DNA of 64,000 bases from a virus: positions 1-64,000 of IMG/VR virus record IMGVR_UViG_3300037628_000218, one strand, 5' to 3'. How positions within the stretch are numbered: the first letter of the stretch is position 1; every line of letters begins with the position of its first letter. Positions 1 through 6,031 of the stretch are shown here, one piece after another. The notes under the pieces were generated by a model. That model ran no database searches. It was not told the DNA's origin and saw nothing but the letters and a program-made list of their open reading frames with translations. Both the position numbers and the translations under genes were made by a program.

Positions 1-115
1 CTACAAAAGTACACCCGTTACTAATATACTCTTTACCGTCTGACATGAGTATCAAAAAAGACGGATTATTACGATAAGATTCTTCTACATACCCTACTAA
101 TCTAATAAATTTCAT
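1..115 (-). CDS. 5' part of an early LRR-family paralogue (runs off the window)
   Basis: ATG at 115; nt 1-127 are identical to 845-971 and encode MKFIRLVGYVEESYRNNPSFLILMSDGKEYISNGCTFV. Confidence 0.8.
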   Translation of the reverse strand, partial: MKFIRLVGYVEESYRNNPSFLILMSDGKEYISNGCTFV

Positions 116-140
116 AATCTTAAACCTTTTTGCCGTTTGT

Positions 141-181
141 TTAAGTTGTACCCATTTTAACAGCCTTAAAACTACTGTCAA
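141..181 (-). promoter_or_regulatory. Early promoter cassette
   Basis: TTGACA-16 nt-TAAAAT followed by the leader motif ACAACTTAAAC. Confidence 0.85.
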
Positions 182-479
182 CACCTATTTCTAATACTCT
201 AAAGTTTAAAGATTGTTATAGTATTTATAACCCCCCACCTTGGGAGTTCCTACCAACCATTACTACATCAATCTAGGTAAACGCTCCCACACCTTCACAA
301 GCTCTAAAACCCTTCAACCCACCCTAGCCCTCCATTGATCCTCGGAGCTTCCTTGCAGCTTCTCATAAACTATTAAGACTCCCTATAAGCAGCCTGCTAG
401 GGATCTTGTAGGACGCTACAAGTAAGCTTAAAAGTGTAGTACTACATTAGTACTAGGTTAAGTTATATCTAGTTATTAG

Positions 480-959
480 CTAGGGTTGGTATGGGCAGCC
501 TCGGAACATGCACATAACCTCAGCATCCTCGTTTATGTTGCCAGTAAATTCTGTTAACGCACGACAACGCTCAAATATACAATTTCCATAAAGTAAGCTA
601 GGTAAGTCACTTGTAAACTTTGATAACTTCTGACAATTATAAAACATATCGTTAGCAATAACTACACTAGATAGGTCCTCGTCAAATTCTGTTATACCCT
701 CTATACCCATGTAACCCCAAAACATACAGCTAGTATTAACCACTTTACCTATGTCTATCGCACTAGAGAGTAGTAACTTGTTAACGTGGTGGGTACATGT
801 AGGGTGTTCAGCTTCTAGCCTGTCTATATTCTTTGTTGTATTCTCTACAAAAGTACACCCGTTACTAATATACTCTTTACCGTCTGACATGAGTATCAAA
901 AAAGACGGATTATTACGATAAGATTCTTCTACATACCCTACTAATCTAATAAATTTCAT
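480..959 (-). CDS. BspA/TpLRR-like leucine-rich repeat protein with shared N-terminal domain
   Basis: MF..C..L..F repeats (MFYNCQKLSKFTSDLPSL, IFERCRALTEF). Confidence 0.75.
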   Translation of the reverse strand: MKFIRLVGYVEESYRNNPSFLILMSDGKEYISNGCTFVENTTKNIDRLEAEHPTCTHHVNKLLLSSAIDIGKVVNTSCMFWGYMGIEGITEFDEDLSSVVIANDMFYNCQKLSKFTSDLPSLLYGNCIFERCRALTEFTGNINEDAEVMCMFRGCPYQP

Positions 960-1156
960 AATCTTAAACCTCGCTTATTAATATCTTGACACGCTATAAA
1001 ACCGCTATGCCATGCCTCACTAAGTGTCTTAGCCTTACACTCCCAAGCTATCCCATTCTTTAAACCGCTAGCAGTATAACCCCCTGATACTTTCTTGATT
1101 AACATAATTAAGCCCCTAATGTTATGGTTAGAACTGTTACTAAGATAGTACCCCAA
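956..1156 (-). CDS. Hypothetical early protein (true start probably MLIKK at ~1105)
   Basis: ORF downstream of a promoter cassette; stop overlaps the next start. Confidence 0.6.
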   Translation of the reverse strand: MGYYLSNSSNHNIRGLIMLIKKVSGGYTASGLKNGIAWECKAKTLSEAWHSGFIACQDINKRGLRL

Positions 1157-1197
1157 ATAGTGCCGTTAATTATGTTGTTAAAATCAATCATTGTACT

Positions 1198-1250
1198 TAC
1201 TCGCTTTGTTTAAGTTGTAGCTATCTTATCAGGTTGGTTAGTGGTGTCAA
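1198..1250 (-). promoter_or_regulatory. Early promoter cassette
   Basis: TTGACA..TAAGAT AGCTACAACTTAAACAAAGCGAGTA. Confidence 0.85.
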
Positions 1251-1267
1251 CACCTTATTTAGGGGTT

Positions 1268-2023
1268 TTACCTAAAACCGTTTAACTCACTGCTAAAACC
1301 CTTTAGTGAGGTGCAAGTGTTGAACATACCGAATTCCACTTTTAACATTGGTAACTTGCTGTTAAAGCTAGTTAACTTGAAACAACCGTTAAACATACAC
1401 CAGCCGTTAACTAACAGCGGTAACTTACTACTAAACTCAATTAATGCTGAACACTCGCTAAACATCCACATAGACGTTACTAGACTTGGTAACGCTATAC
1501 TAAACTCGGTTATTGCTGTACACTTATTAAACATAGTATCGGCATATTTTAAACTTGGCAACTCTATACTAAACTCGGTTAGCGAAGTGCAACCCTCAAA
1601 AGTAGACCTCGCCCATTTTAATCTTGGTAACTCACTGTTAAAACTAGTTAACTTAGAACAACCATTAAACATACCCTTAGCATCTAATAAACTGGGTAAC
1701 TCGCTATCAAACTTGGTTAGCGAAGTGCAACCCTCAAACATATAACCACCATCAACTAAACTCGGTAACTCGCTATTAAACTCGGTTAACTTAGAACAAC
1801 CATTAAACATACCATTAGCATTAACTAAACTAGCTAGCTCCACACTCTCAGAATTAAGTAGGGCAGGAAAATAACTGATTAGCGACCCTGTAACTTTGTT
1901 AGTGTACTCTACAAAAATATCCCCATGCGATATGTATTCTTTACCGTCTGACATTAGTATCAGATACAAGGGTAAACCCCCGTAAGATCTTTCCACGTAT
2001 TTTAGCAATTTAACAAATTTCAT
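1268..2023 (-). CDS. BspA/TpLRR-like protein with eight 23-aa repeats
   Basis: Eight copies of xLPxLxxxxxMFxxCxxLxxFxx after an N-terminus homologous to 480..959 (LILMSDGKEYIS). Confidence 0.85.
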   Translation of the reverse strand: MKFVKLLKYVERSYGGLPLYLILMSDGKEYISHGDIFVEYTNKVTGSLISYFPALLNSESVELASLVNANGMFNGCSKLTEFNSELPSLVDGGYMFEGCTSLTKFDSELPSLLDAKGMFNGCSKLTSFNSELPRLKWARSTFEGCTSLTEFSIELPSLKYADTMFNKCTAITEFSIALPSLVTSMWMFSECSALIEFSSKLPLLVNGWCMFNGCFKLTSFNSKLPMLKVEFGMFNTCTSLKGFSSELNGFR

Positions 2024-2083
2024 AATCTTGTACTCGCTTTGTTTAAGTTGTAGCTATTTTAACAGACTGATTAGAGCTGTCAA
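2024..2083 (-). promoter_or_regulatory. Early promoter and leader cassette
   Basis: TTGACA..TGTTAAAAT AGCTACAACTTAAACAAAGCGAGTACAAGATT-ATG. Confidence 0.85.
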
Positions 2084-2090
2084 CCACTTA

Positions 2091-2399
2091 TTAACTAAAT
2101 AACCTAATAAAGCCTATTACTACACATACGTATAAACCACCGCATAGAAACCAAAAAGGGCAGTACGGGGGTATTAGTGGGGTTTTTTCAGCCTCTTTGG
2201 TTCGCTCTTTGATCTGCTGAATTAGATTAAACCTCACAACTTGAGTTAGTGCGTCTAAAATATCGGCTAGAATGTCAAGTTTAACTATCCCACAGGATCT
2301 AAGGACTACCCCCTCCCGTATATCCTTTAAGAGCCTATCAAAACTATGTTGTACCCCTTCGAGTACCTTTCTATGAATGTCAAGAGTTGCATCATTCAT
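2091..2399 (-). CDS. Hypothetical protein with C-terminal hydrophobic segment
   Basis: ORF track; MNDATL start shared with 3786..3983. Confidence 0.6.
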   Translation of the reverse strand: MNDATLDIHRKVLEGVQHSFDRLLKDIREGVVLRSCGIVKLDILADILDALTQVVRFNLIQQIKERTKEAEKTPLIPPYCPFWFLCGGLYVCVVIGFIRLFS

Positions 2400-2703
2400 T
2401 AGTAGCCACCTCTAAAGCTTTCAGTGCTTTATTAGCTTTTCTTACATCAATGCAGACTATAGCCACCACAGCCCTGGGGTACTTCTTTTTGATATTAAGC
2501 AATGCTTGCTTTACAGTACCCTTAGCATACCATGACAAGTATTCGTCTATATAGCAGCACTCACAGAAAGGAGGTAAAACCTTAACCCGTAGATTCAAGC
2601 CTGCCCCTGTAGACCAGTGTCCAGCCATAACAGCACCCCCTGCTTTACCGTAAAACTTGCAGTTCATTACAGCCTCTAAACTTTTCAACTGTGTCTTACT
2701 CAT
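2392..2703 (-). CDS. Hypothetical early protein
   Basis: ATG directly follows the cassette leader. Confidence 0.7.
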   Translation of the reverse strand: MSKTQLKSLEAVMNCKFYGKAGGAVMAGHWSTGAGLNLRVKVLPPFCECCYIDEYLSWYAKGTVKQALLNIKKKYPRAVVAIVCIDVRKANKALKALEVATNE

Positions 2704-2763
2704 AATCTTGTACTCGCTTTGTTTAAGTTGTAGCTATCTTAACAGTCCTATATCTACTGTCAA
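2704..2763 (-). promoter_or_regulatory. Early promoter and leader cassette
   Basis: Same leader as 2024-2083. Confidence 0.85.
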
Positions 2764-2767
2764 CCTC

Positions 2768-3043
2768 TTATTTAGGAATAAACGCATATCGGTAATAATT
2801 ACCTTCAAACTTTAATATTCCTGAGCCAGTAGCCTGCCGCATCTCTATATAGTCCTGACTATAATTATAGGGTTCGTTGTTACACTCTAAACCCCCGTCA
2901 AAAATTATTATACCGCTTCCAACGTCTAATTTAGAGTTTGTAAAGAAAACCGTCCTACCTTTTAAGTTCATCTCTTTAATAACAGGAACCTTAAGAGGGT
3001 TAATATAAATAGATAGCTCTATAATAGCCTTGTTGTAATACAT
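2768..3043 (-). CDS. Hypothetical early protein
   Basis: ORF between two cassettes. Confidence 0.65.
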   Translation of the reverse strand: MYYNKAIIELSIYINPLKVPVIKEMNLKGRTVFFTNSKLDVGSGIIIFDGGLECNNEPYNYSQDYIEMRQATGSGILKFEGNYYRYAFIPK

Positions 3044-3063
3044 ATTTAGACCCTCTTAGAAAT

Positions 3064-3104
3064 TTAAGTTGCAACTTCTTTAACAGACTGATTAGAGCTG
3101 TCAA
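3064..3104 (-). promoter_or_regulatory. Early promoter cassette
   Basis: Spacer and -35 region identical to the copy at 2060-2090. Confidence 0.8.
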
Positions 3105-3114
3105 CCACTTATTA

Positions 3115-3750
3115 CTAATTAGTTAAGCCATCCTTAAAAATCTTTATAATTACACTATCTAGTATAATAGATTGGCCTGTAGTACAACGCCCCCAATATT
3201 CACCATCTAGCGTACACTCACCATATGCCTCTAATTTCGCTATTAGCCATCTATCACATGCCCACCATTCGTAAATTTCAGGGTAGGTCTCAAACTCCAT
3301 TGCTTCTAATTTATCGCAAATATCTAAAAATCGGTTTAGTGTCTTAGTCTCAAAGCTATCTAAACGTAACGCCAAAGCCACATGCTCCTTGGTATGGGGG
3401 TTTAGTCCATCATATGCAGCATCTCCTAGCGTGTATATCTTATGATATATAACGTTATAAACGTCCTGCGCCTTATCTCTCAAATACTCGTAGCGTTCTA
3501 GTTCAGAATCCCGTTCGCTTTCTGTTAGATTTTGATAATAAGTACCAATATCAATATGACCATAAGGAACATTATTGGTTATATCCTCATATTCCATAGG
3601 TGCGTCCTCACCTTCAAGGCTTTTTTGTATCACGTATTCAATCAGGGTAGTTTGACAGCATTGGACATAGCCACCAACAAACTTGGAAACTGCGTTCTGT
3701 TGTTCAGACGTTGGAGCTGCGTTATATTCTTCTAAAGTAGTTATAAGCAT
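3115..3750 (-). CDS. Hypothetical early protein (acidic, WGRCTTGQ motif)
   Basis: 211-aa ORF preceded by the ACAAAGCGAGTA leader. Confidence 0.75.
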   Translation of the reverse strand: MLITTLEEYNAAPTSEQQNAVSKFVGGYVQCCQTTLIEYVIQKSLEGEDAPMEYEDITNNVPYGHIDIGTYYQNLTESERDSELERYEYLRDKAQDVYNVIYHKIYTLGDAAYDGLNPHTKEHVALALRLDSFETKTLNRFLDICDKLEAMEFETYPEIYEWWACDRWLIAKLEAYGECTLDGEYWGRCTTGQSIILDSVIIKIFKDGLTN

Positions 3751-3785
3751 TTTGTTTACTCGCTTTGTTTAAAATGTTGTTTCGT

Positions 3786-3826
3786 TTAAGTTGTAGCCAT
3801 CTTAACAGTTCTGTATCTAGTGTCAA
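3786..3826 (-). promoter_or_regulatory. Early promoter cassette inside the 3' end of ORF 3786..3983
   Basis: TTGACA..TAAGAT GGCTACAACTTAA. Confidence 0.8.
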
Positions 3827-3983
3827 CTATTATTTCAGCACACGTAACCAAATATTGCAATTCCTCGAATAACTCAAGATAGACTATAGACTCTTTGGAA
3901 TACCATTTACTATTGTCGGCTACCCATCTAGCTTTCAACCTGTCTTTAATGTTTATATATACCTCAAGCGTTGCATCATTCAT
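3786..3983 (-). CDS. Hypothetical early protein
   Basis: ORF; last 14 codons read through the next promoter cassette. Confidence 0.6.
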   Translation of the reverse strand: MNDATLEVYINIKDRLKARWVADNSKWYSKESIVYLELFEELQYLVTCAEIIVDTRYRTVKMATT

Positions 3984-4003
3984 CTTAGTATTCCTAGTTT
4001 CGT

Positions 4004-4045
4004 TTAAGTTCTAGCTACCTTAACAAACCACTTTCAGCCTGTAAA
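4004..4045 (-). promoter_or_regulatory. Early promoter cassette (TTTACA variant)
   Basis: TTTACA-17-TAAGGT AGCTAGAACTTAA. Confidence 0.75.
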
Positions 4046-4053
4046 GGTTTATT

Positions 4054-4275
4054 TTAAAATAATTCTAATTGTAGGTGACTATCCCCAAGTATATAAAAAG
4101 CCTCGTCTAGTTCAAAAGCTTCTACCTGACAACAATCAGAAACCTCTATAAAATCATGGTGAGTGGAGGTAAACCCCCAGTATTCTGTAGTGCCGATGCC
4201 CTCGTCGATTACTATAATGCTGCAAGGTTTTTCACAGTGTCCACAAATCATTTCAGTATTGTGCATATTCGTCAA
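4054..4275 (-). CDS. Hypothetical Cys-rich protein
   Basis: CGHC and SDCC motifs. Confidence 0.55.
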   Translation of the reverse strand: MTNMHNTEMICGHCEKPCSIIVIDEGIGTTEYWGFTSTHHDFIEVSDCCQVEAFELDEAFYILGDSHLQLELF

Positions 4276-4281
4276 CCTTTA

Positions 4282-4620
4282 TTAGTCAAGATGCCCAGCG
4301 CACATTAAGGAATGGTGTACACTCTCCCCAAATATATGGCAAGCCTTTGTAGCGTCGTTTGTATCAATAACTTCTGCCCCATATACAATACGGTGGCTTT
4401 TACCCCGTTTTACCCAAATAACAGCACAATCCCCTTCATCAAAACTAGCTAGAAGATCAAACCCCCGCCCTGCTATATGATACCCTTCAATAGCTTGCGC
4501 TAGTATCAATGTTGGCGCAGCTCCTACAAAGTCACCACAGAATCTAACAACGTGTTGCGGAGTGCCTGAAATATGCCCTGTGTACTCCAAACCTATTGTA
4601 TAGCGTGCATCATCATTCAT
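4282..4620 (-). CDS. Hypothetical early protein
   Basis: ORF after a cassette. Confidence 0.7.
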   Translation of the reverse strand: MNDDARYTIGLEYTGHISGTPQHVVRFCGDFVGAAPTLILAQAIEGYHIAGRGFDLLASFDEGDCAVIWVKRGKSHRIVYGAEVIDTNDATKACHIFGESVHHSLMCAGHLD

Positions 4621-4627
4621 TATACTG

Positions 4628-4681
4628 TACTCGTTTTGTTTAAGTTGTAGCTATCTTACTAAAGGTGTTTCAGCCTGTAAA
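4628..4681 (-). promoter_or_regulatory. Early promoter cassette (TTTACA variant)
   Basis: TTTACA..TAAGAT AGCTACAACTTAA. Confidence 0.8.
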
Positions 4682-4705
4682 GCTTTATTTTAAAATACTC
4701 TGAAG

Positions 4706-5305
4706 TTATGCACTTACAGGAATCAAAACCCACCCCCCGAACTTACTAGAACCCTGTATACTTGCTAGACGCTCCCGCCTTGTTTGTACCGTTATTTTGG
4801 ATTGACCCATTACTGCCTGATTTAACTGTTGTGTGTCTAATACTATATCATCATTCAAGCGCGTCCTACTTAAAGAATTACCACGTTCATCCTGGGTACT
4901 AAAGGTTTCACATTTAGTTAAATCTACCTTCAACTCTAAAGGTCGCGTTTGGTCAATAATACGTTGTACTTGGGGGTAGTAACCAGACAGATCAACTAGG
5001 TTGCATGTTTTTGGACAATAGAACCCCTCTCCCAGCTCAGTGTTGCACCAGTGGATTCTTTGACCGTCTGAACCATACAAAACTGAACCGTCACTATGCA
5101 AGTAGTTTAAATACTCGCGCATATCCTTTTTACCTACCGCACTAGCTACCCACTGCCAAGCTGTTTTTGGTTTAGCTGGCAAGGAGGGCATAAAGTATTT
5201 GTAAAGTGCTTCTAGCTCACTGTTTGGGTTATCGTCAAGGCTCTTTGTTACATATTCAAAAGCTTGCTTGCGTGTCATTGCTTTAACATTACTATTAAGT
5301 TTCAT
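4706..5305 (-). CDS. Protein with a sliding-clamp (DnaN) domain-like segment
   Basis: KKDMREYLNYL..YGSDGQRI..GYYPQVQRII resembles DnaN DVRYYLNG / ATDGHRL / GRFPDYRRV. Confidence 0.55.
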   Translation of the reverse strand: MKLNSNVKAMTRKQAFEYVTKSLDDNPNSELEALYKYFMPSLPAKPKTAWQWVASAVGKKDMREYLNYLHSDGSVLYGSDGQRIHWCNTELGEGFYCPKTCNLVDLSGYYPQVQRIIDQTRPLELKVDLTKCETFSTQDERGNSLSRTRLNDDIVLDTQQLNQAVMGQSKITVQTRRERLASIQGSSKFGGWVLIPVSA

Positions 5306-5337
5306 TCTATATACACCTGTTTGCTTGCTTGTTTCGT

Positions 5338-5378
5338 TTAAGTTGCAACTACTTTAACAGCCTTGTAACCACTGTCAA
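5338..5378 (-). promoter_or_regulatory. Early promoter cassette
   Basis: TTGACA..TAAAGT AGTTGCAACTTAA; the -35 box supplies the upstream stop codon. Confidence 0.8.
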
Positions 5379-5731
5379 CACTTATTTTTAATATTCTCTA
5401 CACTATCACGCCACTTTCGTCCTGTCACTGTCAAATTATCGCTATGATACACGTTTCCAATCGTTAACCTAGCCACTAGCAACAACTGCCTTGCTATGCC
5501 CCTCCTACGCTTACCAGGCTGTGTATACACGCTTTTAATAGTCTTGTTAGCCTCTACTATTAAGCAGCTATCAAAAGGGGTGCTAGTGCCTCCCTGTGAG
5601 TTCCTATGACAAAACCTATAGCTGTTATTAGATGCTTTCAATATTACCACGTCTAAGCCAAATTTGTGAGGTGTTAAAGTTTCTAGCAGCTTGTAGCAGT
5701 TAAGCGGTTTTAAGGTGTTAATATCAAACAT
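5375..5731 (-). CDS. GNAT-like acetyltransferase
   Basis: IKSVYTQPGKRRRGIARQLL matches the acetyl-CoA-binding motif A (RxxGxA). Confidence 0.6.
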   Translation of the reverse strand: MFDINTLKPLNCYKLLETLTPHKFGLDVVILKASNNSYRFCHRNSQGGTSTPFDSCLIVEANKTIKSVYTQPGKRRRGIARQLLLVARLTIGNVYHSDNLTVTGRKWRDSVENIKNKC

Positions 5732-5740
5732 AGTAAACCC

Positions 5741-6031
5741 TTATATTAAACCATCTAAATTGCCACGTACAGCATAAACTAAACCCTTGCCAGCTATTCG
5801 GGTAATTTTATCCCTGCTAGCACTCCTAAAACCTTTATTGTCTTTGCTAGTGTTAGCTAGTGCTATTGTGAATAGATCACTGTACCCGTTGTGGCTACCA
5901 GGGCTTGCGACTAACTGCCCGTTTAATTTACGAGCTGAACCGTCTTTTTTAATGAAGTTAACAGTTACCACCTGCCCGTGTAAGTCTTCTAGTATGCTGT
6001 CAACCTCTTTTCTATTTAGAAAGTTAGTCAT
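5741..6031 (-). CDS. Small SH3/WYL-like beta-barrel protein
   Basis: VTVNFIKKDGSARKL motif. Confidence 0.5.
   Translation of the reverse strand: MTNFLNRKEVDSILEDLHGQVVTVNFIKKDGSARKLNGQLVASPGSHNGYSDLFTIALANTSKDNKGFRSASRDKITRIAGKGLVYAVRGNLDGLI

Follow-up and report, generated by a model that had tools for sequence, protein, structure and literature searches.

Leucine-rich repeat (LRR) solenoids are among the main protein-recognition scaffolds of biology, and cytoplasmic LRR proteins encoded by phages are essentially uncharacterised. Two described repeat classes come closest to the genes considered here. One is the BspA/TpLRR class (PF13306; structures 4fs7, 4gt6, 4h09 and 6mlx). The other is the PARCEL/DUF285 class (PF03382, TIGR02167), in which conserved hydrophobic and very variable hydrophilic repeat positions go together with a patchy distribution and links to mobile elements and viruses (Roske et al. 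2010, PMC2996958). Virus-encoded multigene families of LRR or DUF285 proteins are on record from Kratosvirus quantuckense (AaV), with 38 DUF285 proteins (PMC10720644), and from CroV, with LRR proteins of the FNIP/FGxxFN kind (PMC9525666). In this study we analysed three related genes, P1, P2 and P3, from the first 64 kb (the window; 64,000 nucleotides) of the 93,797-bp IMG/VR record IMGVR_UViG_3300037628_000218 (here G000), a phage contig classed as having direct terminal repeats. Each gene encodes a constant N-terminal head, a helical linker and a solenoid of variable LRRs. It is suggested here that the products could be early-expressed cytoplasmic binders of host proteins that evolve in an arms race, a reading to which we give about an even chance. 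The repeat class is known; in our literature searches neither the head-bearing phage family nor phage cytoplasmic LRR binders were found described.

All the genes concerned lie on the minus strand. The three paralogues and the repeats within them are as follows, in window coordinates:

1 to 127, first copy of an exact repeat block: 12 nt of leader and the first 39-40 head codons, 100% identical to 845-971
1 to 115, minus strand, 5' part of the P3 open reading frame (ORF): its first 38 codons, given in the ORF list as a fragment at 2-115
480 to 959, minus strand, ORF of P2, 159 amino acids: head and linker as in P1, then about 3.5 repeats with a 4-amino-acid insertion in the first
845 to 971 (841-971 with 4 extra bases), second copy of the exact repeat block, 100% identical to 1-127
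1268 to 2023, minus strand, ORF of P1, 251 amino acids, with head residues 1-41 at 1901-2023
1829 to 1900, minus strand, part of P1: linker of two helices
1271 to 1828, minus strand, P1 repeats: eight 23-residue BspA/TpLRR-type units at a spacing of exactly 23
1550 to 1831, minus strand, internal duplication of a 138-bp two-repeat unit in P1 (repeats 1-2 against 3-4), with the scaffold retained and the variable positions altered

An initial annotation of this DNA had recognised at least three paralogues with a common N-terminal domain, two of them complete and the third truncated. The common domain is borne out, as the head profile matches P1, P2 and P3 at E values of 4e-28 to 3e-31 (6e-31 for P2), and P2 and P3 align throughout with the family in the family alignment. 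The third paralogue is however also complete. Reading around the 109-bp overlap of the contig ends completes P3, the remainder of which lies outside the window at G000 93330-93688 (the region was also matched in the genome search, at 93288-93797), to give a protein of 157 amino acids with about 3.5 repeats. The leftward extension that had been proposed for counting paralogues therefore yields three copies in the whole contig, all of them whole.

The combination of a constant N-terminal module with a variable LRR solenoid extends well beyond this genome. A profile of head and linker, searched against 1.84 billion representatives, found 83 proteins, of which 67 reached E<=1e-10. Nearly all are 140-230 amino acids long and have the head starting at residue 1, and the family comprises at least 67 clusters at 50% identity. 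The head, of about 45 amino acids with a consensus around PSF.ILMSDGKEYISNGC.F.ENT, is followed in this family by the helical linker and LRR_5/DUF285 repeats, a definition that P1, P2 and P3 fit. In a domain scan of 57 members LRR_5 was present in 27 and DUF285 in 12, and no other domain recurs. The repeat units are of 22, 23 or 26 residues and their number varies across relatives from 3 to about 10, the variation that the initial annotation had proposed to look for. The homologues of P1 include small metagenomic proteins with the common head. A cultured phage of Vibrio fischeri, HNL01, encodes two members among small genes near its left end, KUA24_4 (224 amino acids) and KUA24_23 (184 amino acids). 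Two copies each are found in HNL01, L007 (in tandem), L015 and L025, against three in the phage of the window. Members lie on viral and metagenomic contigs, where the neighbours on longer contigs are phage-like and non-structural, and when 185,579 bacterial and archaeal species, each represented by one genome, were scanned for the pattern, a single locus turned up, on a contig of a metagenome-assembled genome. Judged from these searches the family is almost confined to phages.

Some members and their surroundings have features of their own. P0190 (388 amino acids) has an extra C-terminal stretch of about 200 residues with a P-loop-like motif, GLGDGKTT, and P0186 (307 amino acids) and P0191 (371 amino acids) have N-terminal extensions of about 115-145 residues before the head. 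Directly upstream of the head-LRR gene in L006, at 501-1271, a 256-amino-acid protein consists of repeats of about 33 residues (CYVFAKDVPGADIQALQARVLE-like). A conserved partner gene was considered and rejected: the 121-amino-acid genes downstream of both HNL01 paralogues are unrelated to one another, and no neighbour recurs across loci. The relatives L026-L028, found through the neighbouring 211-amino-acid protein, have only that gene in common with the window and contain no head or LRR gene.

The assignment of the repeats to the BspA/TpLRR type is upheld. P1 matches Pfam LRR_5 (PF13306) at E=1.5e-11 with 44.7 bits, above the gathering cut-off of 27.7, and its repeats are spaced by exactly 23 residues; P2, at 15.4 bits, is below this threshold and P3 has no LRR_5 match, both being linked to P1 by the family alignment. 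An AlphaFold2 model of P1, built on a 20-sequence family alignment (pLDDT 93.7, pTM 0.90), has four beta strands (residues 2-10, 19-24, 29-33 and 36-39) and two short helices, followed by a regular solenoid with two beta ladders per 23-residue turn. In Foldseek searches with this model the neighbours were the BspA-like structures 4fs7 (E=3.6e-5) and 4gt6 (E=8.3e-5), and the TpLRR structure 6mlx with a TM score of 0.49-0.57 over 179 columns. The model of P1 is thus a confident LRR solenoid of the kind known from the BspA-like and TpLRR structures. As to the neighbouring class, P1 scores 24.1 bits against TIGR02167 (PARCEL), under its cut-off of 30 bits, and P2 and P3 do not match this model at all, while KUA24_23 of HNL01 (38.4 bits) and P0169 (71.3 bits) pass it. 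PF03382 (DUF285) is not among the Pfam matches of P1. A PARCEL unit has 25-26 residues and dyad symmetry in its coding DNA (PMC2996958), whereas the P1 unit has exactly 23, and a dyad symmetry search of the P1 DNA (1268-2023) found no inverted repeat of 14 nt or longer. On these comparisons the family sits between the BspA-type and the PARCEL/DUF285 repeats.

The head is the most conserved part of the protein, with Ser32 present in 57/57 members, Pro18 in 55/57 and Phe37 in 54/57. Folded alone it is predicted as a four-stranded meander with two helices (pLDDT 79.9). It has no match in Pfam, and against PDB sequences the best E value, 0.049, is not significant. Structure comparison with 48,161 chains (VIA-align) gave a best Z of 4.3, mostly to single propeller blades, which is uninformative, as were the best hits in BFVD (E=0.24) and in the ESM Atlas (score 0.79). 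The head may cap the solenoid at its N-terminal end, or it may offer a constant surface for docking. The "effector head" of the initial annotation is unproven: no Pfam, PDB-sequence or fold match supports it, and the module was only ever seen in front of this LRR type. A germline set of adaptors, in which a constant head does the docking or acts as effector while exchangeable solenoids choose the target, seems to us quite improbable. Were it true, each solenoid would capture a different host protein, such as a defence protein, and consign it to a common fate, for example sequestration or transfer to a protease. Repeat duplication, gene conversion and positive selection would keep renewing the set, which would be a phage counterpart of LRR-based immune receptors. 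One further feature of head and linker is a pair of cysteines, Cys 35 and Cys 54, which covary in alignment A4 (both present in 36/57 members, both absent in 15/57, one only in 6/57). They are present in P2 (at about 855-857 and 795-800 of the window) and P1 lacks both. The covariation suggests a disulfide or a shared metal site.

The pattern of variation within the repeats is read here as the signature of a binding surface. In P1 the five positions before the buried Met-Phe pair differ in every repeat, as the initial annotation had noted. When 58 repeats from ten members were put in register, however, the highest entropy family-wide fell on three positions only, namely the two residues before Met-Phe and the one after it. 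These are the fourth and fifth of the original five together with a position beyond the pair, the third of the five being nearly always Gly or Ala, and the same three lead when L007 is left out. The hypervariable positions are rich in W, Y, F, H, R, C and G: 26% of the residues there are aromatic, as against 2.5% at the remaining variable positions, and there is enrichment of Arg, His, Cys and Gly as well. Between the tandem paralogues L007a and L007b the ratio of non-synonymous to synonymous rates (dN/dS, or omega) is 3.05 at hypervariable, 0.91 at other variable and 0.02 at scaffold positions. The proportion of non-synonymous differences (pN) at the hypervariable positions is 0.46 against a synonymous proportion (pS) of 0.20, and amino-acid differences fall on 21/30 hypervariable positions and on 37/196 others (p=4e-8); for non-synonymous against synonymous change within the three positions p=0.03, and p=2e-4 when the synonymous sites are pooled. 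Since repeats paired within a protein are not independent of each other, these figures and those that follow describe a pattern and are not formal tests. Among the HNL01 repeats hypervariable pN is 0.52-0.59, with pS of 0.27-0.39 at other positions and of 0.02-0.10 at the hypervariable sites themselves. Across the 138-bp duplication in P1, differences occupy 8/10 sites in the five positions and 6/36 elsewhere (Fisher p=4e-4), with omega of 1.59 against 0.27 on very few sites.

Several observations weigh against early cytoplasmic binders in an arms race. The dN/dS analysis that the initial annotation had called for gave omega above 1 in relatives with young repeats (L007 and HNL01) but not in P1, the repeats of which are near saturation in all site classes, with omega of about 1 at hypervariable positions and 0.32 elsewhere; selection there is consequently indistinguishable from relaxed constraint. 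Selection is therefore seen in relatives only, with small site counts and non-independent repeat pairs. The structure prediction supplies the solenoid, and the hypervariable residues probably form one exposed stripe on it, to judge from solenoid periodicity and motif mapping. On mapping to the LxxLxLxxNxL motif, this stripe would fall within the variable segment, away from the canonical concave sheet that is the binding face of most LRRs. Comparisons of fold, sequence and profile suggest no function for the head, and BspA-type and PARCEL proteins are typically surface proteins.

Saturation in P1 is what would be expected if the products were generic LRR scaffolds, for instance assembly or structural helpers, with loop residues free to drift and the head serving as an N-terminal cap. 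The pS of about 0.57-0.60 that goes with an omega near 1 in P1 resembles neutral saturation, variable x positions are a general trait of PARCEL and BspA repeats (PMC2996958), and a cap would fit both the head never occurring with another domain type and its confident overall fold with the solenoid (pTM 0.90). Where repeats are young, though, pN exceeds pS at the hypervariable positions in both L007 and HNL01. The enrichment of Trp, Tyr, Arg, His and Cys is also unlike drift at exposed loops, and the conservation of the head, with many polar residues and an invariant Ser, goes beyond the usual needs of a cap. We consider relaxed constraint unlikely on this balance, and binding of host proteins remains the reading that we prefer.

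A different possibility concerns where the proteins act. They could serve as virion-associated adhesins or decoration proteins, or could come free when the cell lyses and then bind ligands on cell surfaces or in the environment, as might be thought from their nearest relatives in sequence and fold, which are bacterial surface LRR proteins, and from the larger metagenomic proteins that carry this LRR subtype with other terminal domains. BspA surface proteins have an export signal or anchoring, whereas the N-terminus here, MKFVKLLKYVERSYGG, has by inspection no hydrophobic core and no lipobox, and in the P1 model residues 2-10 form a beta strand that belongs to a folded domain; the initial annotation thus holds in stating that there is no signal peptide. 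The LRR genes moreover stand in a region of small cassettes with sigma-70-type promoter-like sites, whereas the sheath and tape-measure genes are tens of kb away. They have no structural PHROG match, and the neighbours of LRR genes in other contigs are non-structural. Action outside the cytoplasm accordingly appears improbable, and a cytoplasmic location of the binders is the likelier one.

The means by which the solenoids diversify can be considered from the repeats in the DNA. The initial annotation had found 1-127 and 845-971 identical at DNA level and the third copy diverged, and the repeat finder gave 100% for the two and 69% identity to the block for the P1 copy at 1909-2035. With the contig joined at its end overlap, the identical stretch grows from 127 to 131 bp. 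Its boundary is sharp, P2 and P3 falling to 44% protein identity right after it, and an exact run of such length between proteins otherwise only 44% identical is not due to chance. The 131-bp identity fits gene conversion between P2 and P3, which is proposed from sequence comparison. Within P1 the repeat finder detected 69-bp periodic repeats, and Tandem Repeats Finder gave 80% matches at period 138 against 68% at period 69. Similar events are visible in relatives: KUA24_23 of HNL01 has two identical consecutive repeats, and a third allele from the L007 metagenome (L019) is a mosaic of sites of the a and b types. No reverse transcriptase (PF00078) was found in the 93.8-kb genome, while control genomes matched, so that this is not a diversity-generating retroelement; a template repeat was covered by the general repeat scans only. 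The conversion tract, the P1 duplication, the identical HNL01 repeats and the L007 mosaic make ordinary recombination a plausible route of diversification. Reshuffling via the identical 5' block, as first proposed, is plausible in so far as it means recombination among copies, although the identity itself may in part be an effect of assembly.

This last point deserves attention because the first and last 109 bases of the contig are identical (window 1-109 and G000 93689-93797). The terminal overlap lies wholly within the 131-bp block, which also occurs at 841-971, so that both the closing of the contig and the number of copies of the 844-bp unit depend on how the assembler resolved the repeat. 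A word length of 127 is common in assemblers. As the contig starts 4 bases into the repeat, bases 1-127 make up a single 127-mer, and the one public run with this DNA exists as short contigs that are broken at the repeats and leave window 1-941 uncovered. It is conceivable, then, that similar heads were collapsed into one graph edge, which would exaggerate the identity and might leave the overlap or the 844-bp copy number wrong. Set against this, segment 128-844 is joined to the block at both sides within the contig, reading around the overlap yields an intact 157-amino-acid protein colinear with P2, and paralogue mosaics are found in relatives too. Collapse itself needs near-identity, and DNA identity would still drop abruptly from a level of about 95% or more to about 65%. 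We hold it improbable that assembly accounts for the identity, and a recent conversion tract is the explanation we favour.

The initial annotation had also placed all three genes under strong early promoters. The features bearing on this are:

154 to 181, minus strand, sigma-70-type promoter-like site before P3: TTGACA, 16 nt, TAAAAT, TG extension; 11/12
956 to 1156, minus strand, small ORF (ORF66): 66 amino acids from TTG, about 49 from an internal ATG
1223 to 1250, minus strand, promoter-like site before the ORF66-P2 cassette: TTGACA, 16 nt, TAAGAT, TG extension
2056 to 2083, minus strand, sigma-70-type promoter-like site before P1, within leader family D4: TTGACA, 16 nt, TAAAAT, TG extension; 11/12

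P1 and P3 each have a site of their own but P2 does not, being the second gene in the cassette behind ORF66. The stop codon of ORF66 overlaps the P2 start as ATGA, which makes co-transcription with P2 probable. The repeat finder identified a 62-nt leader family (D4) upstream of genes at 129-190, 1198-1259 and 2031-2092, and several relatives are also preceded by similar promoter-like sites. Early timing would follow from these sites being of the host (sigma-70) type. Other features of this region were observed in passing. A 144-amino-acid ORF runs through the P1 repeats on the plus strand (1311-1745); in other loci its matches run antisense to LRR genes in every case, and most probably the frame merely results from the repeat and is no real gene. 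A gene-free spacer of 350 bp (128-479), G-rich on the minus strand, separates the P2 stop from the promoter-like site of P3; it matches nothing in Rfam, and its folding energy is not out of the ordinary (z=-0.66).

Analysis of the remainder of the contig and of its relatives helps to place these genes. The DNA comes from a marine sediment metagenome (a single public run contains the stretch), and megablast of window 1-6000 against GenBank phages gave no match. The phage, which is uncultured, is myovirus-like, encoding a tail sheath, tape measure, DNA polymerase, primase-helicase, ribonucleotide reductase and nicotinamide phosphoribosyltransferase. Between about 75 kb and position 1 the minus strand carries nearly every gene, and the LRR genes stand at the far end of a small-gene array. 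The nearest relative found with a complete genome, G002 (94,888 bp), has the common leader and several cassette genes at 36-77% identity, including a DNA counterpart of the ORF66 5' part and leader that is 77% identical, and no head-bearing gene. The LRR genes are hence accessory and lie in a variable region. Between L034 3433-6488 (G002) and window 1-2700 the far end of the cassette array is wholly different and the near end is homologous (36-77% identity), so the array has a conserved part and a replaceable part. The "antibody-like repertoire" of the initial annotation is an overstatement for three germline copies in a genome with no reverse transcriptase. Just downstream of P3 and outside the window, at G000 92928-93167 (L002 1141-1380), an 11-bp unit is repeated 13.6 times in tandem and is followed by a 20-bp repeat with two perfect DnaA-box sequences (TTATCCACA) and two near-copies. 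This region beside the LRR cluster looks like an origin or genome-end region.

Taken together, P1, P2 and P3 could be small cytoplasmic binding proteins made of a beta-meander head, a short helical linker and a BspA/TpLRR-type solenoid. Host RNA polymerase would transcribe them, probably early in infection, from strong sigma-70-type promoters in the variable far end of the cassette array. The solenoid would probably bind host proteins by means of the stripe flanking the buried Met-Phe pair, two residues before it and one after, and this stripe would evolve fast while scaffold and head stay fixed. New specificities might arise when repeat units or whole genes are duplicated and when one copy converts another, and the identical 5' block of 131 bp in P2 and P3 would be a recent conversion tract. 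The head would act as a solenoid cap or a constant docking surface. A family that is near phage-only, often multi-copy, carried in variable cassettes with strong promoter-like sites and marked by an arms-race signature looks as counter-defence or takeover proteins would look; such a role, proposed in the initial annotation, is an inference. As two members are present in cultured HNL01, a phage of Vibrio fischeri ES114, the idea is directly testable, and if host factors are indeed bound, a fixed scaffold with three variable positions per repeat would be a compact natural design for a binder.

Comparison with the known systems shows where this locus joins them and where it departs. With the BspA/TpLRR class the proteins have in common a 23-residue repeat with a buried aromatic and a Cys (AFxxC there, MFxxC here). 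The proteins of that class are bacterial and mostly secreted or at the surface, whereas those of the window are phage proteins of 150-250 amino acids without a signal peptide, with a head and helical linker peculiar to the family, an LPxL segment that is displaced with respect to the IxIP motif, and, in P2 and P3, scores below the Pfam threshold. The likeness to PARCEL/DUF285 proteins lies in the conserved hydrophobic and variable hydrophilic positions, and head-bearing P0169 has canonical PARCEL repeats. The canonical unit of that class is however of 25-26 residues with a WDxSxVT motif, against 23 here, its proteins have been described mainly as membrane-targeted, and P1 is below the TIGR02167 cut-off and without dyad symmetry. 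The LRR/DUF285 families of giant viruses are also virus-encoded paralogues in variable regions, suspected of host-factor binding or of accordion-like duplication, but these viruses infect eukaryotes and have many more copies, of other repeat classes and without the head, while the host of the window phage is a bacterium and its copies stand in cassettes with sigma-70-type promoter-like sites. As a working analogy, the repebodies derived from lamprey variable lymphocyte receptors (7yco and 4j4l), which are among the fold matches, likewise combine a constant scaffold with a few specificity positions per repeat. The phage genes differ from them in showing no sign of somatic or programmed diversification, in being a set of three germline copies, and in having variable positions that would lie off the concave sheet.

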